Shown: positions 3,166 to 17,379 of the stretch, one piece after another
How positions within the stretch are numbered: position 1 is the first letter of the stretch
Layout of the letters: the number at the start of each line of letters is the position of its first letter
Virus genome (UHGV): UHGV-0175251
Origin: a virus
Direction: 5' to 3' (one strand)
Length of the DNA: 29,947 bases
Program-made: the position numbers and the translations under genes
The notes under the pieces: generated by a model
The model's database searches: none
Told to the model about the DNA's origin: nothing
The model's input: the letters and a program-made list of their open reading frames with translations, nothing else

Positions 3166-3168
3166 GTG

Positions 3169-3378
3169 ATGATTTATACGCATGAAATGCTATGCGATGC
3201 CCGCCGGGCGTTACATGAACTGATGATCGGACGTGCTGTGGTTTCCGTCAGCAAGGACGGGCGTCAGGTTCAGTATTCGCGGGCGACAATTGGTGAACTG
3301 CGTCAGTATATTGAAGAGCTGGAAAGTGCGCTGGGTGTATCCGGACGGCGTCGTGGCCCGGCAGGAGTGGGGCTGTGA
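3169..3378 (+). CDS. W: head-tail joining protein (lambda gpW homolog)
   Basis: 69 aa ending RRRGPAGVGL, like lambda gpW (ends RRRGPAGFYV). Sits between A and B as in lambda. Confidence 0.85.
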   Translation: MIYTHEMLCDARRALHELMIGRAVVSVSKDGRQVQYSRATIGELRQYIEELESALGVSGRRRGPAGVGL

Positions 3379-4189: not shown

Positions 4190-4317
4190 TTATGTCTATT
4201 ATCTCCCCGTAGTTGTCGCCACCATTCATCAACTCCACTAAAACCCTTGATATGTCTGGAATGTCGTTTTTTGTATTTATGATGACCGTTCATTACCTTT
4301 CGTGTTTTTCGCGGTTT

Positions 4318-4371
4318 TGTGTATTGCAATGTGTATTGCAAGTTGGCGTTTGGATGGGGTGTGTATTGCAA
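4318..4371. repeat. integrase arm-type repeats (left arm): three copies of TGTGTATTGCAA
   Basis: TGTGTATTGCAA at 4318-4329, 4330-4341 and 4360-4371. The 19-mer GTATTGCAATGTGTATTGC (4321-4339) is identical to 14916-14934 near the other end. Confidence 0.65.
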
Positions 4372-4390
4372 ATTGACGTGTAGGCTACAT

Positions 4391-5632
4391 ATGGCTATCG
4401 AGAATAAACTGACTGACAAACTTCTGAAAAGTCTTGCAGGTAAGCCGCAGGACAGACAAAAAATCATGGCTGATGGGCGGGGGCTATCTGTTCGTGTAAG
4501 CGTGGTTGGGGGAATTAGTTTCGTTTTTTACTATCGTATTGGCGGCAGGGATGCCCCTCCGGTATGGCTGACCCTTGGGCGTTATCCTGATATGTCTCTG
4601 GCAGCCGCCAGGAGATTACGCGACCAGTGCCGTGAATGGCTGGCGGAAAATCTGGATCCTCGCAGACAAATAAAACTTGTAGCTGAAAAAAACATGCGCC
4701 CTGTAACTGTAAGGGATGCGGTGCTTTACTGGTACGATAATCACGCCAGGACAGCCAGAAAGCAGCATGAGTATTTAATAAAAAGATTTGAAAAGCATAT
4801 TTTTCCATATATCGGAGATATGGCTATAGAACAGTGCAAATTGCATACCTGGCTTACTGTATTTGACAGAATTAAAAAAAATGCTCCTGTTATGTCTGGT
4901 GCTATTTTTCTTGATATTAAACAGGCGTTACGTTTTTGCCGTATCAGGCAATACATTAGTTGCGATCCATTCGGTGATATTAACGTTAGTTATGTTGGAC
5001 GTTCAGCAGGCATAAGGGATCGTGTTCTGAGTATTAATGAAGCCGCTGACGTATGGTCTTATGCCTATGGCAACAATTTACTTACCCTTTCATCAATACA
5101 TAACCGAAGAATTATGGTTATCTGCCTGGTGTTTGGTTGCCGTCAGCAGGAGGCGCGGTTATCCACTTGGGAAGAATGGGATTTAAAAAACTGGATTTGG
5201 ACAGTTCCAAAAGAGCACAGCAAGAACGGCGAGGTTATTGTAAGACCAGTCCCTGATGGAATAAAACAATGGGTTATTAATCTTTATGCGGAAACAAAGC
5301 ACCGGGATTGTGTTATCGGTAGATCACTGAAGCGAGCGACAATAACAGGAGCAGCAAGCCGGATATGCAGGCGGCTAGGGCATGATGTAAATGGTCTGTG
5401 GTGCATACATGATTTCAGGCGTACATTTTCAACAATGCTTAACGATATGGGTGCCGATCCTTATATTGTAGAGCTTCTGCTTGGTCATAAAGTTAAAGGT
5501 GTGGCGGGTGTTTATAATAAAAGCAAGCATGCAAAGAAAAAACTTGAGGTTCTTAATATGTGGGTTAATTACCTTAACACGATAGCCGGATTTAATAATA
5601 ACGTTATTGAACTGAGTAAAGAGGTTGTTTGA
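4391..5632 (+). CDS. int: tyrosine site-specific integrase (P4-type)
   Basis: 413 aa from ATG 4391. N-terminal arm-binding-like region (LTDKLLKSL...GRGLSVRVSVVGGISFVFYYRIGGR...LTLGRYPDMSLAAARR) and C-terminal catalytic motifs (HDFRRTF, LLGHK, VAGVYNK with the tyrosine). Confidence 0.9.
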   Translation: MAIENKLTDKLLKSLAGKPQDRQKIMADGRGLSVRVSVVGGISFVFYYRIGGRDAPPVWLTLGRYPDMSLAAARRLRDQCREWLAENLDPRRQIKLVAEKNMRPVTVRDAVLYWYDNHARTARKQHEYLIKRFEKHIFPYIGDMAIEQCKLHTWLTVFDRIKKNAPVMSGAIFLDIKQALRFCRIRQYISCDPFGDINVSYVGRSAGIRDRVLSINEAADVWSYAYGNNLLTLSSIHNRRIMVICLVFGCRQQEARLSTWEEWDLKNWIWTVPKEHSKNGEVIVRPVPDGIKQWVINLYAETKHRDCVIGRSLKRATITGAASRICRRLGHDVNGLWCIHDFRRTFSTMLNDMGADPYIVELLLGHKVKGVAGVYNKSKHAKKKLEVLNMWVNYLNTIAGFNNNVIELSKEVV

Positions 5633-5633
5633 T

Positions 5634-5891
5634 ATGTCAGTTTATTCACTTGTTGATGAAAAAGATTTTACTGCAATGCCGGATATTGATCGTGTCATTC
5701 GTGAAAAAGAATGCGTGGCACTTACTACGCTGGCAAATTCAACACGCTGGAAACTGGAAAAGACAGGTAAGTTCCCAAAACGTATTAAGATTGGTGAACG
5801 TGCCGCTGGCTATCGTCTCTCGGAGATTCAGGCGTGGATCCGTGGCGATTGGCACCCAGGATGGAAACCGGAAAAAACAAAACAGCAATAA
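5634..5891 (+). CDS. alpA: AlpA-family HTH regulator (possible excisionase)
   Basis: 85 aa, 1 nt after the int stop, GAGG SD. LANSTRWKLEKTGKFPKRIKIGERAAGYRLSEIQAWIR resembles the AlpA family. Confidence 0.7.
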   Translation: MSVYSLVDEKDFTAMPDIDRVIREKECVALTTLANSTRWKLEKTGKFPKRIKIGERAAGYRLSEIQAWIRGDWHPGWKPEKTKQQ

Positions 5892-5907
5892 CCAGGAGAT
5901 AAACACA

Positions 5908-5932
5908 GCCCCGCTCAATGCGGGGTTTTTTG
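5908..5932 (+). terminator. rho-independent terminator after alpA
   Basis: GCCCCGC / TCAAT / GCGGGG hairpin followed by TTTTTT. Confidence 0.75.
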
Positions 5933-5950
5933 TATGTGAGGTAAAAAGCG

Positions 5951-6529
5951 ATGAATAAAAATATTGCCGTGACGGGCAAAGGTGACGCTCGTCTAGTAAA
6001 AAAATTCTGTGATATTCGTGATCTGGTCGTTCTGCGCTTTGATGGTGTGAACGTTCGCGTGGTGTATCTGAACGGCGATCCGTGGTTTGTTGCAGTTGAC
6101 GTGTGCGCTGCGCTGGAAATTGTTGATCACAAGGTTGCGTTACGCCGTCTCGATGATGATGAAAAGGGGGAGTGTTTAATACCCACCCTTGGCGGAAATC
6201 AAACAATGCGAACTGTATGCGAGTCAGGTTTCTACAAACTAATAGCCCGTAGCCGCAAAGCAACGACGCCTGGCACGTTCGCCCATCGTTTCAGTAACTG
6301 GGTATTCAGAAATGTGATACCGGGTATCAGAAAAACGGGGGCTTATGGTATCCCGTGGGGCGCATTACAGGATTTTTCCCGCCGTAAAGAGCAATATCAG
6401 ATAAGTGCCAGCGAGAAGGGGAGGGAGCTACAGGCATGTAAGCGCAAAAAGCGTGAGCTGGAGGAAGAAGAAAAAAGGCTGATACGTGAATATCAGCCTG
6501 AGTTTTACTTTGGTGAGCGTATTCAGTAA
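5951..6529 (+). CDS. Bro-N domain protein (antirepressor-like)
   Basis: 192 aa; N-terminus LRFDGVNVRVVYLNGDPWFVAVDVCAALEI has the Bro-N / phage antirepressor signature; C-terminus charged. GAGGT SD before the ATG. Confidence 0.7.
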   Translation: MNKNIAVTGKGDARLVKKFCDIRDLVVLRFDGVNVRVVYLNGDPWFVAVDVCAALEIVDHKVALRRLDDDEKGECLIPTLGGNQTMRTVCESGFYKLIARSRKATTPGTFAHRFSNWVFRNVIPGIRKTGAYGIPWGALQDFSRRKEQYQISASEKGRELQACKRKKRELEEEEKRLIREYQPEFYFGERIQ

Positions 6530-6810
6530 CCACTCGCAGTGCTGATTATACGGTACATCGTGTTAACCGGGAAGCTACCCACCAGCAAGGCAAAATCTTC
6601 TGCTAAAAAATGATATATGGTCAGCCGTCCGGAAAGCATGAAATTTTACAAAAATGGAAAATGAAGATTTTTATTGTGCTGGTGGGTAAAAACAAAAAGC
6701 GCCCCGTTGCCGGAGCGCCTTTGTGAACAATTAACCTACTGCGCAAAAAATGAATCTGAGCAGTGGGATTATATCAACCGTGTGACGAAGCGCCACAATT
6801 GCCGGATAAC

Positions 6811-6842
6811 AGGCAAAACAAAGGCCACCCGCTACGGTGGCC
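6811..6842 (-). terminator. candidate intrinsic terminator for the leftward small-gene operon
   Basis: GGCCACC / CGCTAC / GGTGGCC perfect 7-bp stem; on the minus strand it is followed by TTTGTTTTG. Confidence 0.5.
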
Positions 6843-6960
6843 CTTCAACACAAGCTACACGTTATCCCCAACGCATGAGCATCACCAACAATGCCACATT
6901 TGCGGCTGGTGGGCAAAGCTTTAGCGGAATTTTTTCCCTGTTGCCTGGAGTGGGTAATGA

Positions 6961-7143
6961 TTACTTGTATCGCTTATTCCTGCACAAAACAGGGCTGCTC
7001 TTTTTGATGAAATCCTCAAGCAAAAAACACTCTGTTGATGCTCTTGGTAATTCTCTGGTGGAAGGATGGGGTTTTATCCCCCATTTTCGTTTACGTTCTT
7101 CCAGAAAGGAGGTGAGTATATCTAGTTTCTGTGCGTCCATCAT
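6961..7143 (-). CDS. hypothetical small protein (60 aa)
   Basis: Third ORF in a leftward series with regular 57-bp spacing; weak SD; no recognisable homology. Confidence 0.3.
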   Translation of the reverse strand: MMDAQKLDILTSFLEERKRKWGIKPHPSTRELPRASTECFLLEDFIKKSSPVLCRNKRYK

Positions 7144-7200
7144 TTTTCTCTTGGATACTTCTTTGTGCCATGGATCCTCACACCACGGCGCTGATAGTGG

Positions 7201-7398
7201 TTATTTCTGCTCTTCAACATCACCATGTCGTGATGTTTTCCAGGTATGCGACCCCATTTTTGTGCGCCTGTACTCTTTTAAGAACTTCTCAAGGCCAAAC
7301 GCACATGGCGCGAATCTCTCCTGTTCTTGTTCGCTTACCGCGTTTTTGCGTTGTTTTTTCCTGGATGAAGATAATTTCTTTAATGATTTGTCAGTCAT
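7201..7398 (-). CDS. hypothetical small basic protein (65 aa)
   Basis: Second ORF of the leftward series (MTDKSLKKLSSSRKKQRKNAV...); no recognisable homology. Confidence 0.35.
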   Translation of the reverse strand: MTDKSLKKLSSSRKKQRKNAVSEQEQERFAPCAFGLEKFLKEYRRTKMGSHTWKTSRHGDVEEQK

Positions 7399-7455
7399 CG
7401 TAGATACCTGTAACCCAGTGCGCCACAGTTCACCGCACCACGGCGCTGGTGATGG

Positions 7456-7635
7456 TTACTCCTGCTCTTTGGCCTTGCGACGCTGGCGGCGTTTGATCTC
7501 GCCTTGCATTGACGCAATGATGAATTGTGATGTGCTTTCGCCTGATTCTTTCACTGATTCCATGGCGTTTACTATTTCGTGTGGTACACGAGCCTTTAGA
7601 GCTTGTGATTTTGCGTTTGTTGTACCCGTTGCCAT
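7456..7635 (-). CDS. putative ribbon-helix-helix DNA-binding protein (candidate repressor)
   Basis: 59 aa from ATG at 7635-7633 with GAGG SD. ALKARVPHEIVNAMESVKE...TSQFIIASMQGEI fits a strand-helix-helix pattern. Transcribed divergently from the rightward operon. Confidence 0.5.
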   Translation of the reverse strand: MATGTTNAKSQALKARVPHEIVNAMESVKESGESTSQFIIASMQGEIKRRQRRKAKEQE

Positions 7636-7639
7636 TTCT

Positions 7640-7740
7640 ATTCCTCTGGTGGATTGGTGGGGAACAGTATACACAGAAAAAACACAAATAAAACTCTTGA
7701 CGTGGACCACACCTAAAACATATAGTGGGCCACACCTTAA
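7640..7740. promoter_or_regulatory. divergent promoter/operator region of the element
   Basis: Rightward TTGACG (7697-7702) and TATAGT (7721-7726), 18-bp spacer. Direct repeats TGGACCACACCT (7703-7714) and TGGGCCACACCT (7725-7736) overlap it. Leftward -10 TATACT on the minus strand around 7657-7662 precedes the RHH gene. Confidence 0.55.
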
Positions 7741-7834
7741 AATTATCAAGGCGCATAAATGCAAAGCCCCGCAAGTGTCGTTACCACTCGCAGGGCTTCT
7801 AACCACCAACGATAGAAAGAGTATCGAGGTAGCT

Positions 7835-8038
7835 ATGAGAAATCATACCACACACCCGCAAGGGCGGGACTCGCACAACCTGAATAAATACATCTGGCGT
7901 TTTATCGCCCTGAGCACGGCACAACCGCGCGTGATTACCATCGAGGCCACCAGCGAACAGGAAGCACGCCAGCAATCTCCGGCTGGCTGCGTGATGGTAT
8001 TCGCCGCCCGTATTCGCCAGGAGGTGCGCCATGATTAA
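7835..8038 (+). CDS. hypothetical protein (possibly Icd-like)
   Basis: 67 aa, first gene after the rightward promoter, GAGG SD. KYIWRFIALSTAQP...FAARIRQEVRH resembles Icd-like proteins of P4-type elements from memory only. Confidence 0.45.
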   Translation: MRNHTTHPQGRDSHNLNKYIWRFIALSTAQPRVITIEATSEQEARQQSPAGCVMVFAARIRQEVRHD

Positions 8039-8243
8039 CCTGTCACTTACCGACCTTAACCGCATTCAGTTTCGTGAGAAATTTACCGGGCAGTTGTTGG
8101 TTAATGTGGATAAAGGTCGCGTGGTGTGTAATTACCACCTGCCAGATGAAGCAATTGTCGCAACAAGGGAATCATTACAGGAACTCGCAGAGCGTGCCGG
8201 AATGATTAACGCGAATATTCAGGGGGTGAGACATGTGCAATAA
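8031..8243 (+). CDS. hypothetical protein (70 aa)
   Basis: ATG overlaps the upstream stop (translational coupling); part of the operon. Confidence 0.45.
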   Translation: MINLSLTDLNRIQFREKFTGQLLVNVDKGRVVCNYHLPDEAIVATRESLQELAERAGMINANIQGVRHVQ

Positions 8244-8496
8244 CCCCCGTCCGGACGCAGCCGCCGAAGCTATCAGAACGCTGATGCACGCGCTGATTGA
8301 TATTTCATGCACGGCAGCAACCGCAGAAAAACACATTACCATAGAGCCGGAATATACAGGGGCAATAATCCCGCATTCGCTGGCATACGCACAGCTTACC
8401 GCTGATATGGCACTGAATGAGGCCAAAGCTATCCTGATTGCTGATTGTGAAAATGGGGGGGGGTGGTTATGCGTGATGATCGTTTTAATGCCCTGA
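8233..8496 (+). CDS. hypothetical protein (87 aa)
   Basis: AGGGGG SD; overlaps neighbours; no recognisable homology. Confidence 0.4.
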   Translation: MCNNPRPDAAAEAIRTLMHALIDISCTAATAEKHITIEPEYTGAIIPHSLAYAQLTADMALNEAKAILIADCENGGGWLCVMIVLMP

Positions 8497-8702
8497 AACA
8501 GGAATTTGATGGCGCACCGGAAGATACAGATATTGCGCTGTTATGTGTTGCTGACATGGTAAAAGCTGCATGTTTTTTACTGGAAACCGCCGAACATTCA
8601 GGAACGGGTAGCGATATTCTCAATATTGCGTCGGACTATGCGGAATATGTGGCAGAGACGCGTTACAGAAGTAAATTCCCGGAGGGGGTGAGCCATGCAT
8701 GA
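8469..8702 (+). CDS. hypothetical protein (77 aa)
   Basis: G-rich SD; first in-frame ATG at 8469 (track start 8463 is GTG). Confidence 0.4.
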   Translation: MRDDRFNALKQEFDGAPEDTDIALLCVADMVKAACFLLETAEHSGTGSDILNIASDYAEYVAETRYRSKFPEGVSHA

Positions 8703-8928
8703 TATTTACAATGACACAGTAGACCATGCATACAGCGCACTTGCTTACAGTGAAAACATGCTTGAAATATTGCGCTTATGGCTTGAAACGCTTGGCGATA
8801 ATGAAAGAGATAAACGCAACAGCAATATTGCAACAGCATTAATAACGCTTCTTGAGCCTGTAATAAATGAACTGCAAGAAATAGACATCTTGCACGACAG
8901 ATATAAAGAGCCACACACCGGAGAATAA
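8695..8928 (+). CDS. hypothetical protein (77 aa)
   Basis: GGAGGGGG SD; start overlaps the upstream stop. Confidence 0.45.
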   Translation: MHDIYNDTVDHAYSALAYSENMLEILRLWLETLGDNERDKRNSNIATALITLLEPVINELQEIDILHDRYKEPHTGE

Positions 8929-8933
8929 AAACC

Positions 8934-9233
8934 ATGAAAAAGAAAAATTCTGGCTTTACTGCCAGCGGCCCCGCTCGGCCTGAAATCCGCCCAGGCGATA
9001 TTTTCCGGGATAACTACGGCGGCACGGTAACGATTAAAAGTATTGCCGGACGGTGCGTTACTTACCGCCGTGATGGGTACAGCTACGACTGCGTGATGCC
9101 TGTTTATCAGTTCCGGCGTGATTTTTCGCTGGTACAGGCCACACCACGCAGACAGCCCACCAGCAACGCAAAGGCACGGGCAAATATTCAGAAAATGAAA
9201 AACATGATTAACGCATTCAGGGGTAAAAAATGA
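8934..9233 (+). CDS. hypothetical protein (99 aa)
   Basis: GGAGAA SD; its stop overlaps the start of the replication gene (ATGA). Confidence 0.45.
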   Translation: MKKKNSGFTASGPARPEIRPGDIFRDNYGGTVTIKSIAGRCVTYRRDGYSYDCVMPVYQFRRDFSLVQATPRRQPTSNAKARANIQKMKNMINAFRGKK

Positions 9234-10645
9234 AACTGGCACCGAACTTAAAAAAACAGCCGCACGACAAAATGACCGAAGTCATTATTTTTGCGGGTAG
9301 TGATGCCTGGGCGCACGCGAAACAGTGGCAGGAACAGGACGGGCGACTTGCTGGCGACAACGTGCCGCCTGTATGGCTTGGAGACAACCAGCTTGACGAA
9401 CTGGCAGACCTGAAAATCATCGATGATGGTCGCTATTGTGTCCGGCTGTACAAGGCAGGCCACATCAAGCCGTCAAATATTAATGCCATCGGGCAAAAGC
9501 TGGCGGCGGCAGGTGTACGGGATGCGAATTATTACCCTGAGGGAATGCACAGCCAGAAGCTGGAGAACTGGCACGACTACCTGCAACGGATCCGCGAACA
9601 GGCAGAGCGCGGGGAAATACTTACTGACGAGCAATACAGCCAGCGAAAAACCACACTACCAATGAGCATTGGGTCCGCAGGATACGACACACAGCTTGAT
9701 TATGTCGTTAAGGGCGTGATTCCGGCTAATTCGTTGTGCAGCACATACGGCGCGAGCGGTTCCTATAAATCGTTCCTCGCGTGTTCCTGGGCGTGTCATG
9801 TTGCCACGGGTCGCCACTGGGGAGGCCGCAGGGTGGCGCATGGTTCGGTGATGTATGTTGTCGGTGAAGGGGGTATAGGTGTCCCCCGCCGTATCAAGGC
9901 ATGGGAAATCGTTAATGATGAACGGGTGGAAAATTTGTACCTGGTAAACCGCCCGATTTTTCCGGCTGTCCCGCTTGATGTTGATGAAATGGTTATCGCG
10001 TCCCGCCAGGTTGAACGGGAAACGGGTAAACCGGTACGCATGATTATTCTGGATACGCTGGCGCGTTGCTTTGGTGGTAATGATGAAAATGACGCGCGGG
10101 ATATGGGGGCGTTTATCCGTGGATGTGACGAACTGAAACGACGCACAGGGGCCACGGTGCTGGTGGTTCACCATTCCGGCAAGGATGAAACAAAGGGGGC
10201 ACGTGGTTCCAGTGCATTTCGTGCATCTCTGGACGCTGAATACCGTATTCGCCGTGAAGGTGCGGACAGTGAAGCCCTGGTTATCTCCTGCACCAAAATG
10301 AAGGACGCGGAGGAACTGAAAGAGGCTGCATATGATTTACGCGTGGTGGAGCTTTTTACCGACGCTGACAAGGAGTTAATCACGTCGCTGGTGGTTGTGG
10401 ATAAGCCGCGCCCACCAGTTGAACTGGAGCGCATCGAGGAAGCCGGGAACAAGACGGAGAATCACGCCGCGCTATGGGGCTGTATCCGTTCACGCACACA
10501 GCGCGGCGATAAATGCACTATCCCGTTATTGCGTGATGATATGAAAAAGCTGGGGTATGAGATGAAGCACTTTAGTCGCTGGTTACGCAAGCTGGAAAGT
10601 GACGACGTAATCGCTATTGACGGCGATGATGTTCACCCGATGTAA
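9230..10645 (+). CDS. replication initiator / RepA-like (AAA_25-type) helicase
   Basis: 471 aa. Deviant Walker A GASGSYKS, Walker B-like RMIILDTLARCF and VLVVHHSGKDETKG motif typical of RepA-like RecA-fold helicases. Iterons immediately downstream. Primase activity cannot be judged from sequence alone. Confidence 0.7.
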   Translation: MKLAPNLKKQPHDKMTEVIIFAGSDAWAHAKQWQEQDGRLAGDNVPPVWLGDNQLDELADLKIIDDGRYCVRLYKAGHIKPSNINAIGQKLAAAGVRDANYYPEGMHSQKLENWHDYLQRIREQAERGEILTDEQYSQRKTTLPMSIGSAGYDTQLDYVVKGVIPANSLCSTYGASGSYKSFLACSWACHVATGRHWGGRRVAHGSVMYVVGEGGIGVPRRIKAWEIVNDERVENLYLVNRPIFPAVPLDVDEMVIASRQVERETGKPVRMIILDTLARCFGGNDENDARDMGAFIRGCDELKRRTGATVLVVHHSGKDETKGARGSSAFRASLDAEYRIRREGADSEALVISCTKMKDAEELKEAAYDLRVVELFTDADKELITSLVVVDKPRPPVELERIEEAGNKTENHAALWGCIRSRTQRGDKCTIPLLRDDMKKLGYEMKHFSRWLRKLESDDVIAIDGDDVHPM

Positions 10646-10850
10646 AAAGTGGGGAACAAAAGTGGGGAGAGTGGGGAATTTAACAAAAAATCAACGTTAC
10701 TCCCCACTTTCCCACCTGTATATACCCAAAAAAGTGGGGAGTAAAAAACACATTGAAAAACATCACGTTAGAATCACAAAAAAACGAGGTGGGGAGCAAG
10801 TGGGGAATTTTAAAAAGTGGGGAACAAAAGTGGGGAGTGGTGGGGAATGA
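10646..10850. repeat. iteron array: about 10 copies of GTGGGGA (candidate ori)
   Basis: GTGGGGA at 10649, 10662, 10671, 10734, 10789, 10800, 10817, 10830, 10840 and inverted (TCCCCAC) at 10701, set in A-rich DNA directly after the rep stop. Confidence 0.75.
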
Positions 10851-11098
10851 ACAGAAAAACCAGAGATAAAACAGTGCCAAAATATCGCGCATTAGACATG
10901 ACAGAGCACGCCTTAAAGGTGGCAATCAGAACGATAGACCGCCACGCCGGGGAAGGATACGCGAAAGCACATCCCGAACTGATAAGCGCATTCATGGCCA
11001 CGACGGCGGCAAACTTTGCCACGCTGACAGAACGGGAGATTGCCGAAGCGGAACAGGTGACAACCATCAACGTTAAAACCGGAGAGCAAACAGCATGA
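10847..11098 (+). CDS. hypothetical protein (83 aa)
   Basis: ATG at 10847 at the end of the iterons; overlaps the SSB start. Confidence 0.4.
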   Translation: MNRKTRDKTVPKYRALDMTEHALKVAIRTIDRHAGEGYAKAHPELISAFMATTAANFATLTEREIAEAEQVTTINVKTGEQTA

Positions 11099-11517
11099 CA
11101 GCACAGATAGCGGCTTACGGGCGGCTGGTGGCTGACCCACAGTTAAAGACCACCAGCAAAGGGACACAAATGGCGATGGCGAGTATGGCGGTTCCCCTGC
11201 CGTGCAGCCAAGCAGATGACGGAACGGCGACGATGTGGTTATCCGTCCTGGCGTTTGGCAGACAGGCCGACGCACTGGCAAAACACCACAAAGGCGAACT
11301 GGTGAGCGTGGCGGGTAACATGCAGGTAAGCCAGTGGACAGGCCAGAACGGCGAAACGCGGCAGGGCTGGCAGGTTATCGCAGACAGCGTAATCAGTGCC
11401 AGAACGGCGCGACCGGGCGGCAAAAAAGGCCAGCAGGGCCAGGCTACTGACGCACTGAACAGGGCAAAACAACAGGCGGGAAATGATGATCCGTACTGGG
11501 ATAACATACCGTTTTAA
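11095..11517 (+). CDS. ssb: single-stranded DNA-binding protein
   Basis: 140 aa with OB-fold-like pattern (GRLVADPQL...W.SV.AFG..A..L.KH.KGELVSVAG...W....G..R....V) and an acidic C-terminal tip ...DPYWDNIPF resembling the E. coli SSB DDDIPF tail. Confidence 0.65.
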   Translation: MTAQIAAYGRLVADPQLKTTSKGTQMAMASMAVPLPCSQADDGTATMWLSVLAFGRQADALAKHHKGELVSVAGNMQVSQWTGQNGETRQGWQVIADSVISARTARPGGKKGQQGQATDALNRAKQQAGNDDPYWDNIPF

Positions 11518-11533
11518 GCAACGAGTGACAGAA

Positions 11534-11597
11534 GCCGGGATTTTTCCCGGCTTTTTTGTGCGCAAAAAAAATCCCCCGGGATGAGGTTCCGGGGGAT
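11534..11597. terminator. pair of hairpins: + strand terminator (11534-11558) and a minus-oriented one (11571-11597)
   Basis: GCCGGGA / TTTTT / TCCCGGC then TTTTTT; followed by AAAAAAAA, ATCCCCCGG / 9-nt loop / CCGGGGGAT. Confidence 0.7.
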
Positions 11598-11674
11598 TTC
11601 ACGCCGCTAACGTGATTAGCGCTGAATGACTCTGTGGTACAAGGAGTAAAACCACGGCATCATGATTTCATGAT

Positions 11675-11723
11675 TTGCAACAACAGTCAATGTCATTGCA
11701 AAAAATGCAATGATAATTAAAAT
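11675..11723 (+). promoter_or_regulatory. candidate promoter with overlapping palindromic operator for the capsid module
   Basis: TTGCAA (11696-11701), 16-bp spacer, TAAAAT (11718-11723). Perfect palindrome CATTGCA-AAAAA-TGCAATG (11694-11712) overlaps the -35. Confidence 0.45.
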
Positions 11724-11775
11724 CATGAATGACTTTTCGTTATGTTTATTTTTTAGTCAAAGAGGAATCTCATTT

Positions 11776-11982
11776 ATGGGAACACAGAAGCCGGGCGGTG
11801 TATCCGTGTACATCAGCCCCGATATTATCGCCGCACTTAATGCGCGCTTTGAGGAGAACGCAGAGGCAGGAAAAAAAATCGGCCTTGATCCGTTGTGCCT
11901 GGTGAAGCCGTCAGTCGGCTGGATGGTACGCAGCCATTTACGCGCTGCGCTTGGTATGAATCAGCCTCATGGGGGTGAGTAA
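11776..11982 (+). CDS. hypothetical small protein, possibly ribbon-helix-helix
   Basis: 68 aa, AAGAGG SD. VSVYISPDIIAALNARFEENAEAGKK...WMVRSHLRAAL is compatible with an RHH fold. Stop overlaps the capsid-homolog start. Confidence 0.4.
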   Translation: MGTQKPGGVSVYISPDIIAALNARFEENAEAGKKIGLDPLCLVKPSVGWMVRSHLRAALGMNQPHGGE

Positions 11983-13037
11983 TGACAGCGCCGCAACTGG
12001 TAAGCACACCAACGCTACTGAAAAATATCGGGCGCGAAGATGTGCCGGAATTTAAATTTAATCCACTCTTTACTACGTTGTTCTTTCCGAACGTCGCTAC
12101 TTTCAGCACCAGAGATATTGCACTTGATACGCTGGATATTGAAAACGTGGTCATGAGTCCGTTTTGTTCTCCAATGTCAGGCAGCCAGGTTATGCGTGAC
12201 AAAGGTTTCACAACGAACACGTTCACGCCGGGTTATATGAAGCCCAAACACGTTATTGATCCCACCAAAACAATCATGCGCATGGCTGGAGAACAGATCG
12301 GCAATGGTCAGTCTTCCCCGGCACTACGCCGCGTAAAAATGGTTCACGACAGCCAGAAAAAACAGCTTGCTGCCATCAAAGCGCGTGTTGAATGGCTGGC
12401 GGTCAATGCCATCACAACAGGCCGTAACGTTATTGAAGGCGAAGGCATTGAGCGTTATGAAATTGACTGGGGATTACCCGCAACCAATCATATTACGCAG
12501 GCTGGCGGGAAAGAATGGTCAAAACAGGATGCCGAAACGTTTGATCCGATAAGCGACATTGAGGCTTACGCTGATTTTTCCAAAGGTACGGTAAATATTA
12601 TCGTCATGGGTGGCGAAGCCTGGCGTATTTTGCGCTCGTTCCGTCGATTCCGCGAACTCCTGGACACGCGTCGCGGTTCAAACTCGTCACTTGAACTTGC
12701 GCTAAAAGATTTGGGCGGCGTTGTCAGCTTCAAGGGGTATCTCGGTGATGTGGCGCTCGTGGTTTATTCCGGTCGTTATGACGACGAATACGGGCAGCAG
12801 CAATATTTCCTGAAACAAAACATGCTGGTTTTCGGCAATACCGAAAATAAAGGCCTTGTTGCTTATGGTGCCATCATGGATCAGGACGCGGCACGCGAGG
12901 GGTTTTCTGAGGGGATGTACTACCCGAAAAATTATATCGTACCTGGCGATCCGGCGATTGAATACGTGCAGACGCACAGCGCCCCGCAGCCAGTACCCGT
13001 GGATATTGGTCGCTTTGTTACCGTCGAAGTGAAATAA
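11982..13037 (+). CDS. major capsid protein homolog (lambda gpE-like), element-encoded
   Basis: 351 aa. Shares FTPGY.KPKH, NITQAGG[KR]EWSKQ[DN]A[ED]TFDP, REKLDTRRGS, ALKDLG.VVSFKGY, GNT...G..YGAI.D and YPK motifs with the prophage E protein (17825-18853) and with lambda gpE. Confidence 0.9.
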   Translation: MTAPQLVSTPTLLKNIGREDVPEFKFNPLFTTLFFPNVATFSTRDIALDTLDIENVVMSPFCSPMSGSQVMRDKGFTTNTFTPGYMKPKHVIDPTKTIMRMAGEQIGNGQSSPALRRVKMVHDSQKKQLAAIKARVEWLAVNAITTGRNVIEGEGIERYEIDWGLPATNHITQAGGKEWSKQDAETFDPISDIEAYADFSKGTVNIIVMGGEAWRILRSFRRFRELLDTRRGSNSSLELALKDLGGVVSFKGYLGDVALVVYSGRYDDEYGQQQYFLKQNMLVFGNTENKGLVAYGAIMDQDAAREGFSEGMYYPKNYIVPGDPAIEYVQTHSAPQPVPVDIGRFVTVEVK

Positions 13038-13047
13038 AGGGGATCGT

Positions 13048-13377
13048 ATGCCAACACCTTACACGCAATTCCTTTCCGGCACGCAGGAACTGGTCAGCAC
13101 GCTGGCCTGTTTTGCCAGTGCCGGAGAAATTAAAGCGAGAACTCCGCTGATGCAGAACGGCGCGGGCCTGATGGTTGAGTGGGACGGTACACCCGGTAAG
13201 GCGGTGTATCTGACCATATCGGACATTAACACGGCCACAAAAAACCGCGCACAGGTTTATAAGTGCGGGGTTTTTAATATCGATGAAATTAACTGGCCTG
13301 ATACAGCGGACACGTTCGAGAAAAAAGTGTCGGCTTTTGTTGGTTCCGGTATTTCCGTGCAGCCTTTAGGGCAATAA
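13048..13377 (+). CDS. head decoration protein homolog (lambda gpD-like), element-encoded
   Basis: 109 aa directly after the capsid homolog. TPLM, WDG and AFVGSGIS motifs shared with the prophage D (17420-17755). Confidence 0.7.
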   Translation: MPTPYTQFLSGTQELVSTLACFASAGEIKARTPLMQNGAGLMVEWDGTPGKAVYLTISDINTATKNRAQVYKCGVFNIDEINWPDTADTFEKKVSAFVGSGISVQPLGQ

Positions 13378-13391
13378 TTTTGTGGTGATTT

Positions 13392-13817
13392 ATGACTGAG
13401 AAAGCAAATTCAACCAGAGCATTGATCATGGCACTGCCTGAGGCGCAGAAATACCCGACGCTTGCGGAAAATCTCGCAAATAATGGCGCATCACTGACAG
13501 AAGCCCGAACGGTGCTTACTGCAAAGGCTGAGAGTGATAAACAGCGCATAGAGGGTATCAAGGCGTTACCGCTGGCATCAAAATACCCTGAGTTCACCAG
13601 TAAGCTGATTGAGTGTGGTTCTGAAGTAATGACAGTAACCTATGCACAAACGTTACTGGCTGCCGTGGATGCCCAGGCAATGATGCAGGAAAAGAAAACG
13701 GCTTTTCTGTTTGAAGCGTACATGGAAAAGCACAGCCCGAAATGTGTTGGATCAGCAGCCGGTGATGGCAACGCCGGACTGACCGAAGATGAAAAGCTGT
13801 TGCTGTCTGTTAAGTAA
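13392..13817 (+). CDS. scaffold-like protein (Nu3-like repeats), element-encoded
   Basis: 141 aa. Two repeat-like units (ALPEAQKYPTLAENL..., ALPLASKYPEFTSKL...) and C-terminus TAFLFEAYMEKH...GDGNAGLTEDEKLL resemble the repeat unit and C-terminus of the prophage C/Nu3 (...VTLFERFMAQH...GTAGNGEEELL). Confidence 0.6.
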   Translation: MTEKANSTRALIMALPEAQKYPTLAENLANNGASLTEARTVLTAKAESDKQRIEGIKALPLASKYPEFTSKLIECGSEVMTVTYAQTLLAAVDAQAMMQEKKTAFLFEAYMEKHSPKCVGSAAGDGNAGLTEDEKLLLSVK

Positions 13818-13830
13818 CTGAAATGAACGT

Positions 13831-13863
13831 TCGCGAGGCTGGCAAGGTCTCGCGATTTTTTTT
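13831..13863 (+). terminator. rho-independent terminator after the capsid module
   Basis: TCGCGAG / 11-nt loop / CTCGCGA followed by eight Ts. Confidence 0.8.
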
Positions 13864-13896
13864 GTATCCGTAACGGTGGTGATCGCCCCAATTTTC

Positions 13897-13975
13897 ACGG
13901 GTCCTTTCCAGAACCAGAAACACCGCGGGGCGGCAGACGCGCAAAAAAGCGCTATTTATGACGCTTTCCGGGAAA
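13897..13975 (+). promoter_or_regulatory. element-borne cos site
   Basis: ACGGGTCCTTTCC (13897-13909), GGGGCGGCAG (13927-13936) and GCTATTTATGA (13951-13961) reproduce the prophage cos motifs at 509/540/564 with nearly identical spacing (30 vs 31 and 24 vs 24 nt). Flanking sequence differs. Confidence 0.75.
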
Positions 13976-14028
13976 GGGTACACCACCACCACTTGATTAA
14001 TATTTAATCGCATTATTAAGGTAACGTT

Positions 14029-14469
14029 ATGAATAATAAAGATTGTTTTGTTAGTCAGCAGGAAATAGCAGAACATTTCAAGGTCAACAGAACCACTATT
14101 CGCGCATGGACCAAACAGGGCATGCCGTATCTTGATGCGGATCGCGGAAAGTCCGGCGGTTATCACATCGGACACACATTATTCTGGTGCATGGGTAAAA
14201 GTCATCTTGATGCTATTGAGTACCACGGAGAAACCAGCGCACTGGAAAAGATTATGGTTGCCAGGTTGATTTCATTAGAGCGCGACGAGTATTTCAGTGA
14301 AGAAACAGAACAGCGATTTGATAATGGTCTGCAGATTTACGGGTACTCGCCGGAAGATGTGAGCAAGGCACGAAATAAAATGGCTGGCTTTCTGGCTGGG
14401 TGGCGTCATGCCGTAGCCGTTCGCCGTGAGCATCTGCAACAATCTGTAGTTACAGAGCAGGAAAACTAA
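14029..14469 (+). CDS. small terminase-like protein (Nu1-like N-terminal HTH)
   Basis: 146 aa just downstream of the element cos. N-terminus VSQQEIAEHFKVNRTTIRAWTKQGMPYLDADRGKSGG parallels Nu1 ([24 protein letters not shown]...GGSKG). The C-terminal half is unrelated to Nu1. Confidence 0.65.
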   Translation: MNNKDCFVSQQEIAEHFKVNRTTIRAWTKQGMPYLDADRGKSGGYHIGHTLFWCMGKSHLDAIEYHGETSALEKIMVARLISLERDEYFSEETEQRFDNGLQIYGYSPEDVSKARNKMAGFLAGWRHAVAVRREHLQQSVVTEQEN

Positions 14470-14476
14470 TAAGTAT

Positions 14477-14573
14477 GCAATACAACAACCGCGTATTTTT
14501 GTTAAACCATTTGATTTAATTGGCATTTTTGGAGCCATAACATCAAAAAAACACCCTCAGGTTGTTGTATTGC
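14477..14573. repeat. 14-bp perfect inverted repeat GCAATACAACAACC / GGTTGTTGTATTGC separated by 69 bp
   Basis: 14477-14490 and 14560-14573; contains the GTATTGC motif also present in the arm-type repeats. Confidence 0.5.
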
Positions 14574-14751
14574 TTTCAGTTTTCTCTTAGTTATCAAATG
14601 GATATAACAAACAATTAAACAACAACCACCCCCTCAAAAAATCTCATAAACAGCGCGTTTTTGCGCGTATGGCTACCCCCGGTGTTTTATTTTCCAGGAA
14701 GGACCCGCCACAATTACGGCATTGTTTTCCATCACCACGGAGGCCATGACA

Positions 14752-14937
14752 ATGACCGAAGCCGAAATGCTCAAAATGATTCGCCGCGTTACCGGATCCA
14801 GCAAGACAGCAGGCAAACAGGAGACCACGCAGCCGGACAGCGTGATAGCCGAAAATTACGCGCGTGTGGTGGCTGAGGTGATGCGCCGTGACGGTATTCA
14901 CAAGCAACAATTTGCGTATTGCAATGTGTATTGCTAA
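14752..14937 (+). CDS. hypothetical small protein (about 61 aa)
   Basis: GGAGG SD at 14739-14743; the 3' end runs into the arm-type repeats. Coding status uncertain. Confidence 0.3.
   Translation: MTEAEMLKMIRRVTGSSKTAGKQETTQPDSVIAENYARVVAEVMRRDGIHKQQFAYCNVYC
14913..14936. repeat. integrase arm-type repeats (right arm)
   Basis: TGCGTATTGCAA + TGTGTATTGCTA; the 19-mer GTATTGCAATGTGTATTGC at 14916-14934 is identical to 4321-4339. Confidence 0.65.
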
Positions 14938-15009
14938 CCCTCCAAACGGGGGAAATATGCAAACATAACATATTGTTTTGTCTTTTTATTTTTTCGTATC
15001 TTTTCATAA

Positions 15010-15016
15010 GCGCCAT
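15010..15016. repeat. right junction 7-bp direct repeat GCGCCAT (candidate attR overlap/core)
   Basis: Identical to 4183-4189; portal homology resumes exactly here. Confidence 0.7.
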
Positions 15017-15773
15017 GTATGCCGCCACGATTGAATCCACACTGGATTCGGAAAAAGCGTTTGAATATATCGCCGGGGTGGGAGATGGAGGTAAAAATCC
15101 CCTGAACACCATCATGAAAGGCTACGCGCGTTATTACGCCACCAATACGGTAAAACTGGGCGGGGTCCGTATTCCGCATCTTTACCCGGGAGATTCACTG
15201 AATCTGCAGACAGCCCAGAATGCGGATAATGGTTTTTCTGAACTGGAAAAGGCGCTGTTACGTTACATTGCTGCCGGACTGGGTGTGTCGTATGAGCAGC
15301 TTTCCCGGGATTATTCACAGGTCAGTTATTCCAGTGCCAGGGCATCCGCCAATGAGTCGTGGCGGTATTTTATGGGAAAACGAAAATTTGTGGCCAGTCG
15401 CCTGGCGTCACAGATGTTTGCCTGCTGGCTGGAGGAAGCCCTTATTCGTGGTGTGATCCGTCCGCCGAAATCCCGTTTCTCATTCTGGGAGGCTCGTTCC
15501 GGGTGGTGCCGTGCCGAGTGGATTGGTGCCGGTCGTATGGCGATTGATGGCCTTAAGGAAGTGCAGGAAGCGGTGATGCGCATTGAAGGCGGCCTGAGTA
15601 CATACGAGAAAGAGCTGGCCCTGATGGGGGATGACTATCAGGAGATTTTCCGCCAGCAGCTACGGGAAACTCAGGAGCGACAGGCTGCCGGTCTTCCGCG
15701 TCCGGTCTGGATAAAGAACGCGTTTCAACAGCAGATCCGACAGACAACGGGAGAAAAAGGCGATGCGCTGTAA
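15017..15773 (+). CDS. B: portal protein (lambda gpB homolog), 3' segment
   Basis: (S)AMYAATIES..., GVRIPHLYPGDSLNLQTAQNADNGF, LLRYIAAGLGVSYEQLSRDYSQVSYSSARASANESW and GRMAIDGLKEVQEAVM match the C-terminal half of the lambda portal. Joined to 3375-4189 it gives a continuous 523-codon ORF. Confidence 0.9.
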
Positions 15774-17379
15774 TTTATCACATATTGCCGCGATGGCATT
15801 TAATGAGCCGCTTTTACTGGAACCCGCCTATGCGCGGGTTTTCTTTTGCGCACTGGGTAAGGAGATGGGGGCGGGCAACCTTGCCGTTCCGCAGCAGGCC
15901 GTTCAGCTTGATGCCGATGGTATGCAGCTGGCGGTTACCGATTATATGACTGGTGGTCCGCGTCCGGTAAAGAGTTACCAGGTGAAAAATGGTATTGCCA
16001 TTCTGCCGGTGAGCGGCACGTTGGTACATAAAATGGGTACCCTGCGGCCATATTCCGGTATGACCGGTTATGACGGTCTGACTGCCCGTCTTAAGTCAGC
16101 GGTGAACGACCCGGATGTACGCGGCATTTTACTGGATATCGACAGTCCGGGTGGTCAGGCTGCCGGGGCGTTTGACTGTGCTGACATGATTTACCGTCTG
16201 CGGGAACAGAAGCCCGTGTGGGCGCTGTGTAATGACATGGCCTGTTCAGCCGCCATGTTGCTGGCGGCGGCCTGTACGCGTCGGCTGGTCACGCAGACGG
16301 CAAAAATTGGTTCGATTGGTGTGATGATGGCGCACACCAGTTACGAGAAACAACTGGCACAGGAAGGCGTGGATATCACGCTGATTTACTCCGGGCAGCA
16401 CAAGGTTGACGGCAACAGTATTCAGGCGTTGCCGACAGGTGTGCGTGCGGATTTTCAGCGCCGTATTGATGAGGCCCGCCGGATGTTTGTCGACAAGGTG
16501 GCGCTTTATACGGGGCTGAGTTCAGAGGCGGTGATGAATACCGAGGCTGCCGTTTATGACGGTCAGGCAGGCATTGATATAGGCCTGGCTGATCAACTGA
16601 TTAATGCTGCAGATGCCGTTGATGTAATGGTTTCTGCTCTGAACGACTCTGTTACACAGGAGAATACGATGACAACAAAAAATCTCACCGTTGCTGAAGC
16701 GGTGTCCCAGGAAAATCAGCGCGTGATGGGGATCCTGAATTGTCAGGAGGCGAAAGGACGCGAAAAACTGGCGCAGATGCTGGCAGGTCAGCAGGGAATG
16801 TCAGTTGAGCAGGCAAAAACATTACTGGCGGCAGCACCGGTTGCCGGTACTGACAGCACAGGCGATCAGATTATGGCACTTCTGGAAGCAAAAGGGCGTG
16901 AACAACTGGCACGGACGCTGGCTGAACAGCCGGGAATGACGGTGGAGCAGGCGAAAACGTTACTGGCAGCGGCACCGGTTTCCGGTGCGGCAAGTACCGG
17001 CGAGCAGATTATGGCACTTCCGGAAGCAAAAGGGCGTGAACAACTCGCACAGGCGCTGGCTGAACAGCCGGGAATGACGGTGGAACAGGCGAAAATGCTA
17101 CTGGTAGCGGCACCGGCAACCGGTACGGCAAGTACCGGCGATCAAATTATTGCGTTGCCGGAAGCAAAAGGACGCGAAAAACTGGCACAGGCGCTGGCTG
17201 AACAACCTGGAATGACAGTGGAGCAGGCGAAAACGCTGCTGGCAGCTGCGCCATCAGTATCGCAACCGTCACAGGTAACACTTTTTGAGCGCTTCATGGC
17301 ACAGCATGCCGCCAGTGCCGTTTCCGGTGGCGGAACTGCCGGGAACGGGGAAGAAGAACTGCTGATGAGTATGCCGTAA
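15763..17379 (+). CDS. C: head protease/scaffold fusion protein (lambda gpC homolog)
   Basis: 538 aa. N-terminus HIAAMAFNEPLLLEPAYARVFFCAL and ILPVSGTL, PYSGMTGY, GILLDIDSPGG, GSIGVMMAH, ITLIYSGQHKVDGN match gpC. C-terminal part contains tandem scaffold repeats. Confidence 0.9.
   Translation: MRCNLSHIAAMAFNEPLLLEPAYARVFFCALGKEMGAGNLAVPQQAVQLDADGMQLAVTDYMTGGPRPVKSYQVKNGIAILPVSGTLVHKMGTLRPYSGMTGYDGLTARLKSAVNDPDVRGILLDIDSPGGQAAGAFDCADMIYRLREQKPVWALCNDMACSAAMLLAAACTRRLVTQTAKIGSIGVMMAHTSYEKQLAQEGVDITLIYSGQHKVDGNSIQALPTGVRADFQRRIDEARRMFVDKVALYTGLSSEAVMNTEAAVYDGQAGIDIGLADQLINAADAVDVMVSALNDSVTQENTMTTKNLTVAEAVSQENQRVMGILNCQEAKGREKLAQMLAGQQGMSVEQAKTLLAAAPVAGTDSTGDQIMALLEAKGREQLARTLAEQPGMTVEQAKTLLAAAPVSGAASTGEQIMALPEAKGREQLAQALAEQPGMTVEQAKMLLVAAPATGTASTGDQIIALPEAKGREKLAQALAEQPGMTVEQAKTLLAAAPSVSQPSQVTLFERFMAQHAASAVSGGGTAGNGEEELLMSMP
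16669..17379 (+). CDS. nu3: scaffold protein (Nu3-like), nested in frame in the 3' part of C
   Basis: Internal ATG at 16669 preceded by AGGAG; product carries the repeats and the GILNCQEA motif conserved with lambda Nu3. Nested start is by analogy with lambda. Confidence 0.5.
   Translation: MTTKNLTVAEAVSQENQRVMGILNCQEAKGREKLAQMLAGQQGMSVEQAKTLLAAAPVAGTDSTGDQIMALLEAKGREQLARTLAEQPGMTVEQAKTLLAAAPVSGAASTGEQIMALPEAKGREQLAQALAEQPGMTVEQAKMLLVAAPATGTASTGDQIIALPEAKGREKLAQALAEQPGMTVEQAKTLLAAAPSVSQPSQVTLFERFMAQHAASAVSGGGTAGNGEEELLMSMP
16747..17275 (+). repeat. four tandem 138-bp (46-aa) repeats within C/Nu3
   Basis: Protein repeats EAKGRE[KQ]LAQ.LAEQPGMTVEQAKTLLAAAP..G.ASTGDQIMALP occur four times (last truncated); nucleotide units begin near 16747, 16885, 17023 and 17161. 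Confidence 0.8.

Follow-up and report, generated by a model that had tools for sequence, protein, structure and literature searches.

The question raised by this locus is why the scaffold region of a lambda-like head gene holds four tandem copies of a small module, and whether the number of copies is linked to capsid size. The window, that is, the whole stretch of DNA that was analysed, is a 29,947-nucleotide virus genome (UHGV-0175251).

The protease/scaffold gene and its repeat array

The array is hosted by an E. coli lambda-like prophage, in a known C/Nu3-type gene that encodes a 538-residue protein with an N-terminal S49 (SppA/ClpP-like) domain. Pfam places Peptidase_S49 (PF01343) at residues 146-290 with 5.1e-33 and 114.7 bits against a cutoff of 24.9, and the protein matches phrog_53, "head maturation protease", at 1e-219 and phrog_8399, "head scaffolding protein", in four stretches. 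The late operon in the window is ordered Nu1-A-(W)-B-[insert]-B'-C-D-E-FI, so that the gene follows the portal gene and precedes the D and E homologs, and the same B-C-D-E order is found in intact relatives. The E-like capsid protein is encoded at 17825-18853. The features of the gene are as follows.

15763..17379, + strand: lambda C-like head maturation protease/scaffold fusion gene, 538 aa (S49 domain, phrog_53, gene order B-C-D-E)
16658..16671, + strand: Shine-Dalgarno AGGAG and in-frame internal ATG (Met303), predicted nested scaffold start, cAGGAGaatacgATG
16669..17379, + strand: putative nested Nu3-like scaffold ORF, 236 aa, with a short N-terminal helix, four modules and a C-terminal tail
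16726..16839, + strand: module 1 core, aa 322-359, MGILNCQEAKGREKLAQMLAGQQGMSVEQAKTLLAAAP, positional ortholog of the single lambda module
16864..16977, + strand: module 2 core, aa 368-405 (unit HMM)
17002..17115, + strand: module 3 core, aa 414-451 (unit HMM)
17140..17253, + strand: module 4 core, aa 460-497 (unit HMM)
17254..17376, + strand: C-terminal tail, ~40 aa, SVSQPSQVTLFERFMAQHAASAVSGGGTAGNGEEELLMSMP, shared with phage 21 and, less strongly, with the satellite scaffold

The four tandem 46-residue repeats that the earlier note had read in this gene are borne out by three lines of evidence. Tandem Repeats Finder (TRF) reports a single array at 16746-17246, with 3.6 copies of a 138-nt (46-aa) unit, a score of 645, 84% matches and no indels; any other array in the window scores 48 or less. 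The EAKGRE motif occurs at residues 329, 375, 421 and 467, spaced by exactly 46 residues in the frame of the ORF 15763-17379, and its first codon is at 16747, where the earlier note had begun the array. The unit HMM finds four full-length 38-aa cores of 83-86 bits each, which together span 16726-17253. TRF counts 3.6 copies rather than 4 because the N-terminal helix of unit 1 differs (RVMGILNCQ versus DQIMALP) and unit 4 lacks the linker. Each unit consists of a 38-aa predicted three-helix module and an 8-aa flexible linker rich in Gly, Ser, Thr and Pro.

The 38-aa module is the conserved signature, or core, of the Nu3 scaffold domain. Lambda C carries a single unit at residues 362-399 of 439, which scores 50.8 bits (1.2e-17) on the unit HMM, and the statement in the earlier note that lambda Nu3 is not visibly repetitive is thus correct. 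Pfam and NCBIfam hold no family for the module. Sub-threshold Pfam rows for Peptidase_C23, Bac_DNA_binding, T2SSK and DUF732, of which no stretch passes alone, were treated as noise from the repeated Ala/Leu/Gln-rich helices. A search for literature on repeats in Nu3 or other lambdoid scaffolds returned no relevant paper; a 1993 paper on the phage 21 head genes was outside the reach of the search.

AlphaFold models suggest a three-helix fold for the module. Each unit is modelled as three short helices with a block mean pLDDT of 61-82 in the whole-protein model, and the linkers fall below 50. The models are of moderate confidence (mean pLDDT 62-66) with a pTM of 0.25-0.40, and because of this low pTM no fixed arrangement between units is predicted. 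PDB sequence searches with the Nu3 part and with the unit profile gave best E values of 0.21 and 0.33, both for unrelated proteins, and a Foldseek search of the Nu3 model against the PDB gave nothing below E = 0.6. The top Foldseek rows, obtained with this low-confidence model, are engineered Protein A repeat proteins and Myb repeats, and they merely echo the theme of tandem small helical modules.

The internal Shine-Dalgarno sequence and ATG have a counterpart in lambda at Met309 (cAGGAGGgcgaATG), and the annotated scaffold start of phage 21, Met302, is equivalent to Met303 of the prophage. The arrangement is kept in three-copy and four-copy relatives; the five-copy relative keeps the internal Met with a weaker Shine-Dalgarno match. 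Expression of the nested 236-aa product from this internal start is predicted. Nearly all family members have a tail of 40-60 aa after the last module.

Copy number, selection and capsid proteins in relatives

Four copies is the commonest state in close relatives, within a range of three to five. The 120 closest database proteins include 74 with three copies, 41 with four and 2 with five, and the clusters with four units hold ~1,500 member sequences, those with three ~200 and those with five 2. Entries that carry the labels E. coli, E. marmotae, E. albertii, Citrobacter and Salmonella retain the four-unit state, with protein identities of 86-91%. In the phage collection, the four-unit version is absent from isolated phages, in which the best protein identity is 61%. 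A search of 1.84 billion representatives with the module profile matched 719 proteins; among the best 150 matches, 58 of the 60 long proteins have one copy, and in nearly all cases 40-60 aa separate the last module from the C-terminus. The expectation that a tandem array of this kind is prone to copy-number variation is upheld by relatives with 2, 3, 4 and 5 units and by one larger block duplication.

Every copy of the module is under purifying selection, with an omega of ~0.1. Compared with a 90%-identical ortholog, omega is 0.11 in the module cores, 0.07 in the protease and 0.35 in the linkers, and the paralogous pairs 2/4 and 3/4 have a dS of 0.66-0.80 with an omega of ~0.1. Modules 2 and 3 differ by a dS of only 0.11, which points to a recent duplication or gene conversion. 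Units 2-4 of the prophage protein are 84-87% identical among themselves. Module 1 shares 82-95% identity with unit 1 of relatives and only 66-74% with units 2-4 of its own protein. The copies are homogenised within proteins: lineage-specific substitutions are common to the units of one protein, and hybrid units are located exactly at the junctions of deletions and duplications. The in-register loss and gain of copies, together with their homogenisation, points to unequal recombination.

Copy number is independent of capsid protein sequence. The three-copy E. coli PapRG-04-4 and the four-copy window have major capsid proteins that are identical at 342 of 342 positions and decoration proteins that are 99% identical, and the capsid protein of the five-copy variant is 97.4% identical to that of the window. 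The capsid proteins of lambda (1 unit, 48.5 kb) and phage 21 (3 units, 42.9 kb) belong to one family and are equal in size, and genome size runs opposite to unit number in this pair. Among the phage-collection rows that were sampled, lambda-type one-unit phages have genomes of 42.0-51.1 kb, and three-unit phages have genomes of 48.1-53.7 kb, or 42.9-53.7 kb when phage 21 is included. Scaffold copy number did not co-vary with capsid protein type or genome size in the compared variants and phages. The earlier suggestion that repeat number could be tied to capsid size is therefore not supported, given that three-, four- and five-copy variants occur beside 97-100% identical major capsid proteins and that the genome sizes of one- and three-copy phages overlap. 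Variation of repeat number with no correlation to the capsid was the outcome that the earlier note had itself named as refuting. Because no link to capsid size was found, the array ranks as unexceptional variation in a gene that is already known.

The inserted satellite and its scaffold homolog

[quoted passage not shown]

4190..15016, + strand: helper-embedded PICI, 10,827 bp, in the prophage portal gene
5629-5958: candidate AlpA-like ORF of the satellite
11982-13037: capsid gene of the satellite
13392..13817, + strand: stand-alone scaffold homolog of the satellite, 141 aa, with two diverged modules and a related tail

In-silico excision of 4190-15016 restored an uninterrupted 523-aa portal ORF that is 99.4% identical to an intact homolog. 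The satellite genes comprise integrase, Bro, primase/helicase, SSB, E-like, D-like and Nu3-like genes. Pfam identifies the integrase domains and an AAA_25 helicase-primase, PHROG matches support the Bro/anti-repressor and the SSB, and an Rpp homolog matches PDB 6HLK (4.8e-34). A doubled TGTATTGC motif flanks the crossover at both ends of the satellite, as described in PMC10111431. On the integrase side the copies are at 4320 and 4332, ~130 bp from the crossover, and on the opposite side gtATTGCAatgTGTATTGC is at 14915-14934, ~85 bp from the crossover; the published spacings are 132 and 81 bp (PMC10111431). Like the published HE-PICIs, the element has an integrase, Bro, primase and a late zone, is co-oriented with the interrupted late gene, is inserted in the portal (B) gene and has the doubled tgTGTATTGCantgTGTATTGCa motif flanking the crossover (PMC10111431). 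The idea that the HE-PICI attachment site of gene C falls within the repeats was rejected; in the literature this site maps to the protease domain (CLP_protease:110).

The satellite scaffold homolog carries the shorter related array that the earlier note had noticed. Its two modules, at residues 12-44 and 55-91, are diverged, and both have KYP in place of GRE. The self-alignment of the two units scored 55 compared with a maximum of 45 in 2000 shuffles. The protein is 38% identical over 125 aa to the last two units and tail of the prophage protein, and it matches phrog_1999 (7.6e-12) and phrog_53 (1e-8). A word-indexed search found no homologs beyond its own 177-member cluster. The words "scaffold" and "Nu3" do not occur in PMC10111431, which gives no scaffold gene for the PICI late zone, and the two-module Nu3-like gene is a small addition to the published HE-PICI picture.

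Readings of the array and comparison with known systems

The reading that we favour, with a probability of roughly 0.6, is that the Nu3 core module has been amplified in frame to four copies, making a multivalent, beads-on-a-string scaffold, the copy number of which does not set capsid geometry. One frame would give two products, the full-length S49 protease C and a 236-aa scaffold from the internal start, and both would share the C-terminal string of four three-helix modules, flexible 8-aa linkers and the ~40-aa tail. The modules may act as interaction beads that make weak scaffold-scaffold, scaffold-capsid protein and scaffold-portal contacts, as for lambda Nu3, and may also bring the protease into the procapsid; this binding role is suggested by the known contacts of the lambda protein. 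The prophage protein would then be a multivalent form of the scaffold, compared with the single bead of lambda and the three of phage 21. In-register alleles of 2, 3, 4 and 5 units would arise by gene conversion and by unequal homologous recombination among the units, and selection would preserve every copy. The extra beads are not strictly required, since lambda works with one and the three-, four- and five-unit alleles occur beside near-identical capsid proteins.

The alternative that survives best, possible but unlikely, is that the additional copies are padding, neutral or nearly so, in a disordered scaffold that tolerates insertions, so that copy number drifts without consequence. Consistent with such padding, copy number is polymorphic among near-identical prophages, one module is enough for lambda, and the models point to beads that are independent of one another and joined by flexible linkers. 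This reading is opposed by the observation that all copies are in frame and under purifying selection as strong as that on unit 1, with omega remaining at ~0.1 between paralogs at a dS of 0.66-0.80. It is also opposed by the retention of four units at 86-91% identity across the Escherichia, Citrobacter and Salmonella entries listed above and by the predominance of the ~1,500 four-unit member sequences over the ~200 with three and 2 with five.

It is rather improbable that copy number acts as an adaptive valency dial, which is set at four in this lineage, is reshuffled by recombination, sets scaffold:capsid stoichiometry or assembly kinetics, and is under pressure from the two-module (GRE to KYP) scaffold of satellites. 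If this were true, the satellite scaffold would compete for or recruit the helper protease, portal and shell, and the array would be part of an arms race. A related proposal, which we consider very improbable, is a helper-satellite conflict in which the valency of the helper scaffold co-evolves with the divergent two-unit scaffold of the satellite because the satellite depends on bringing the helper protease and portal into shells of its own capsid protein. The satellite does have E-, D- and Nu3-like genes of its own, lacks a protease and a portal, and resides inside the helper portal gene; additionally, its scaffold tail resembles the helper tail, and both of its modules have the same motif replacement. 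However, a three-unit prophage likewise has an embedded satellite, free-living phages, phage 21 among them, also have multi-unit arrays, and PICI transfer is reported not to require the PICI capsid genes (PMC10111431).

A scaffold ruler, in which scaffold length sets capsid size and the four units of the prophage would give large heads and the two of the satellite small ones, is hardly tenable and is already largely refuted for the prophage. Such a ruler would fit the 10.8-kb satellite with a two-unit scaffold beside a four-unit helper, and scaffold-driven size redirection occurs in other satellites, namely with P4 Sid and SaPI CpmB (10.1101/2022.09.08.507074). It is contradicted by the three-, four- and five-unit alleles, whose major capsid proteins are 100% identical, the reference and 97.4% identical, respectively, by the same-family capsid proteins and opposite genome-size order of lambda (1) and phage 21 (3), and by the overlapping genome sizes of one-unit and three-unit phages. 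For the satellite, the dispensability of PICI capsid genes (PMC10111431) and the phage-sized heads used by published Rpp-type E. coli PICIs, including the model element (PMC6739421), also argue against a ruler. Finally, an assembly artefact in the form of a mis-expanded repeat, which the earlier note had raised and which has only the general risk of tandem repeats in its favour, is ruled out because, of the 40 best-matching complete E. coli genomes listed, 39 have the gene at its length of 1617 nt (one match is 100% identical and 17 are at least 98.5% identical), and nucleotide differences of 12-35% between the units make them individually resolvable.

The finding reveals no new mechanism, the link to capsid size is unsupported, and the surrounding satellite is of an already published kind. 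The finding refines the picture of a classic gene, in that the heart of lambda Nu3 is a discrete module of ~38 aa that occurs singly or in arrays of 2-5 copies that recombine and are under selection. The natural one- to five-copy series beside near-identical capsid proteins is a ready-made allelic series for the role of the module in procapsid assembly.

Herpesvirus UL26/UL26.5, P2 gpO and Mu I/Z follow the same logic as the prophage gene: the protease has its C-terminal region in common with an abundant scaffold, and because of this sharing the protease co-assembles inside the procapsid. We know of no sequence relationship of these systems to the prophage gene and of no tandem amplification of the scaffold core in them. 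Among satellites, P4 Sid, SaPI CpmB and SaPIbov5 Ccm are likewise satellite-encoded scaffold-like or capsid-like proteins beside a helper; they differ in having no homology to the proteins described here, and there is no evidence of size redirection in the present case. Lambda gpC/gpNu3, for which Nu3-Nu3, Nu3-E, Nu3-B and C-Nu3 interactions are published (PMC3224144), shares with the prophage gene the S49 domain, the position between portal B and D/E, the internal Shine-Dalgarno sequence and ATG, the 38-aa module and the tail. Lambda differs in having a single module, separated from the protease by a long low-complexity linker, its nested product has 131 aa compared with the 236 aa predicted in the prophage, and the capsid proteins are 59% identical. 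The closest sequenced phage is phage 21, whose gene 5 (capsid protease/scaffolding protein)/gene 6 (nested scaffolding protein) is also multi-unit, with the nested scaffold annotated at the equivalent Met. Its E protein is 83% identical to that of the prophage, and gene 5 is 73% identical to the prophage gene at the nucleotide level over the protease part. The phage 21 array features three mutually diverged units that are 45-63% identical to the prophage units, whereas the prophage has four.

The repeat array and its gene

The window covers the late operon of a lambda-like E. coli prophage, which encodes Nu1- and A-like terminase proteins, a portal, a C-like protein, D- and E-like head proteins, and tail proteins. 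Tandem Repeats Finder returned one strong array only (138-nt period, 3.6 copies, 84% matches, zero indels, score 645), which is held in frame by the C-like ORF.

15763-17379, C-like ORF of 538 aa
16746-17246, tandem array
aa 322-359, 368-405, 414-451 and 460-497 of the protein, four full-length cores found with the 38-aa core HMM

The core HMM has the consensus DxIxALxEAKGRExLAxxLAxxPGMTVEQAKxxLAAAP, and EAKGRE occurs at aa 329, 375, 421 and 467 with a spacing of 46 aa, so the earlier note was correct in describing and placing four tandem 46-aa repeats in the prophage scaffold. The cores are separated by 8-aa linkers rich in Gly/Ser/Thr/Pro, and a 41-aa tail follows the last one.

The N-terminal 300 aa of the protein form an S49 peptidase domain (Pfam 5e-33), and the whole protein matches the PHROG family 'head maturation protease' at 1e-219. 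The PHROG 'head scaffolding protein' profile (131 positions) gives four matches, all in the repeat region. A Shine-Dalgarno sequence and an ATG at aa 303 (cAGGAGaatacgATG) are equivalent to lambda Met309 and the annotated phage 21 scaffold start, and this internal start is kept in 3- and 4-copy relatives and weaker in the 5-copy relative. The peptidase domain, the PHROG matches and the internal start point to a C/Nu3-type nested pair, in which the four modules and the tail are common to the protease and to a scaffold predicted at 236 aa. From the sequence, the nested scaffold product is predicted to be expressed.

AlphaFold models of the whole protein (mean pLDDT 66) and of the scaffold part (62) are of moderate quality, and both feature three short helices per unit. 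Blocks inside the units average pLDDT 61-82 when the whole protein is modelled; the scaffold-only model has lower values. The linkers fall below 50. The pTM is low (0.40 whole protein, 0.25 scaffold part), so the models show the units as beads on a string whose mutual arrangement is not fixed. A sequence search of solved structures found none related to the module region, and Foldseek gave no significant match for the scaffold model.

Distribution and copy number of the module

A module profile of 22 diverse units matched 719 proteins among 1.84 billion representatives (E <= 0.001). The best 150 of these include 60 long proteins fused to the protease; 58 of them carry a single module and 56 have 40-60 aa between the last module and the C terminus. 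The module is thus the signature that this family of scaffolds conserves, and its amplification is limited to an enterobacterial subgroup. The array had been suspected of being prone to copy-number change, which is borne out by the 120 closest database proteins, where three units are found in 74, four in 41, five in 2 and two in 2; a partial sixth unit match in one of them is explained by duplication of a larger block of 156 aa. When cluster members are counted, four-unit forms predominate in the clade of the window gene (~1,500 member sequences vs ~200 three-unit and 2 five-unit). P0044, a phage 21-type C protein of 657 aa encoded in a complete E. coli genome, has a 156-aa internal duplication that covers the end of the protease linker and units 1-3, a larger scale than the single-unit changes elsewhere.

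An assembly artefact, a worry raised earlier, is ruled out by the equal gene length of 1617 nt in 39 of the 40 best complete E. coli genome records, one of which is 100% identical. Only strain PapRG-04-4 differs, with a gene of 1479 nt and three units; the middle one combines window units 2 and 3 in a hybrid, as expected for in-register unequal crossing-over. Similar junctions occur in other alleles, e.g. the database proteins P0004, P0066, P0072 and the five-unit P0001, in which two neighbouring units are identical. Unit 1 is a positional ortholog across all relatives and of lambda's unit. Units 2-4 have lineage-specific substitutions in common within each protein, a sign of concerted evolution.

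The earlier note had suggested that repeat number could be tied to capsid size. E of the three-unit PapRG-04-4 prophage is identical to that of the window (342/342) and its D is 99% identical; E is 97.4% identical in a five-unit prophage and 98% identical in another four-unit prophage. E belongs to the same family and has the same length in lambda (one unit, 48.5 kb) and in phage 21 (three units, 42.9 kb). Genomes sampled from a phage collection measure 48.1-53.7 kb for three-unit phages (42.9-53.7 kb with phage 21) and 42.0-51.1 kb for one-unit lambda-type phages. Copy number thus varies with no visible tie to either the capsid protein or the size of the genome, the outcome named beforehand as refuting the link. 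At locus L004 (GCA_040149825.1 contig, 1836-13737), the genes Nu1, A, W, B, C, D, E and FI form a lambda-type head module whose C gene has five units. The P2/Mu-type baseplate genes GPW_gp25, Baseplate_J and Tail_P2_I come next, so the locus is a mosaic of a lambda-like head and a contractile-tail-type baseplate.

The embedded satellite and its scaffold

4190-15016, PICI insert of 10,827 bp, splitting the portal gene
4318-4341, doubled motif tgTGTATTGCAAtgTGTATTGCAA, ~130 bp inside the left junction
4362 (within 4360-4371), third copy of the left-side motif
11982-14469, PICI late zone with E-like capsid, D-like decoration, Nu3-like two-module scaffold and Rpp homolog
14915-14934, GTATTGCAATGTGTATTGC, ~85 bp inside the right junction

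In-silico removal of the insert gives an intact portal ORF that is 99.4% identical to an uninterrupted homolog. The insert carries integrase, Bro/anti-repressor, helicase-primase and SSB genes and has the att core GCGCCAT(T/G)TATG(T/C)C. A doubled TGTATTGC motif lies on both sides of the crossover with the published spacing; the distances of ~130 and ~85 bp agree with those given for the attP sites of helper-embedded PICIs, 132 and 81 bp (PMC10111431). The insert is a helper-embedded PICI of that kind (PMC10111431), at a portal (B) site. Its E-like protein is 46% identical to helper E and its Rpp homolog matches PDB 6HLK at 4.8e-34; protease and portal are absent from the late zone. Gram-negative PICIs reportedly often carry capsid genes, which their transfer does not need (PMC10111431), and capsids of the model Rpp-type PICI are reported to be phage-sized (PMC6739421).

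The PICI scaffold homolog (141 aa) has two diverged modules, vs four in the helper, and a tail related to the helper's, in keeping with the shorter related array noticed before. In both modules, KYP stands in place of the GRE that all phage modules contain. A word-indexed search of 5.8 billion sequences returned a single full-length 90% cluster (177 members) and one cluster of partial copies.

A chromosomal PICI between rcnR and thiM in E. coli VG35A2 (L006, 3775-14336) has a different integrase and a capsid/decoration/scaffold/Rpp module 99% identical to that of the window PICI, so the late module is common to embedded and chromosomal PICIs. A satellite-like element is also embedded in the three-unit prophage of PapRG-04-4 (L003, 11074-13479), where it occupies another late-gene position, downstream of the genes for head-tail joining. 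Identity to the window's counterpart is only 29% for the integrase of this element but 87% for its Bro protein. In each of the 25 complete E. coli genomes listed (H146-H170), a related integrase gene adjoins a phage portal gene fragment, with junctions ~80% identical to that of the window, suggesting that this integrase clade commonly inserts into portal genes. No convincing gene was found on the plus strand of 6600-8900, the stretch that separates the PICI's Bro gene from its replication genes; the only long plus-strand ORF there, 6674-8038, begins with TTG and would encode a low-complexity product. The GC skew is reversed locally at 7001-8000.

Constraint on the modules and a proposed multivalent scaffold

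Against the 90%-identical ortholog in strain E41, the window gene has an omega of 0.07 in the protease, 0.11 in the module cores and 0.35 in the linkers. Within the window gene, modules 2/4 and 3/4 differ with dS 0.66-0.80 and dN ~0.075, and modules 2/3 with dS 0.11. The copies are thus not recent junk, since each is constrained at the protein level. The main rival explanation, in which the additional copies would be padding that the scaffold tolerates, is made less likely by this purifying selection on old paralogs and by the stability of the four-unit state across species.

A multivalent scaffold is the best-supported reading. An interaction module present once in lambda would be strung four times in both the protease and the scaffold product, unequal recombination would make and remodel the copies, and selection would maintain each individually. 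The interactions published for lambda are Nu3-Nu3, Nu3-E, Nu3-B and C-Nu3 (PMC3224144), and the modules may mediate one or more of these. The copy-number variants are a useful natural allelic series.

The array gene is an ordinary, though tidy, member of a known gene family. The 439 aa of lambda C contain the module just once, at aa 362-399, in agreement with the earlier note's statement that lambda Nu3 is not visibly repetitive, and phage 21 has three modules, diverged from each other, whereas the window gene has four.
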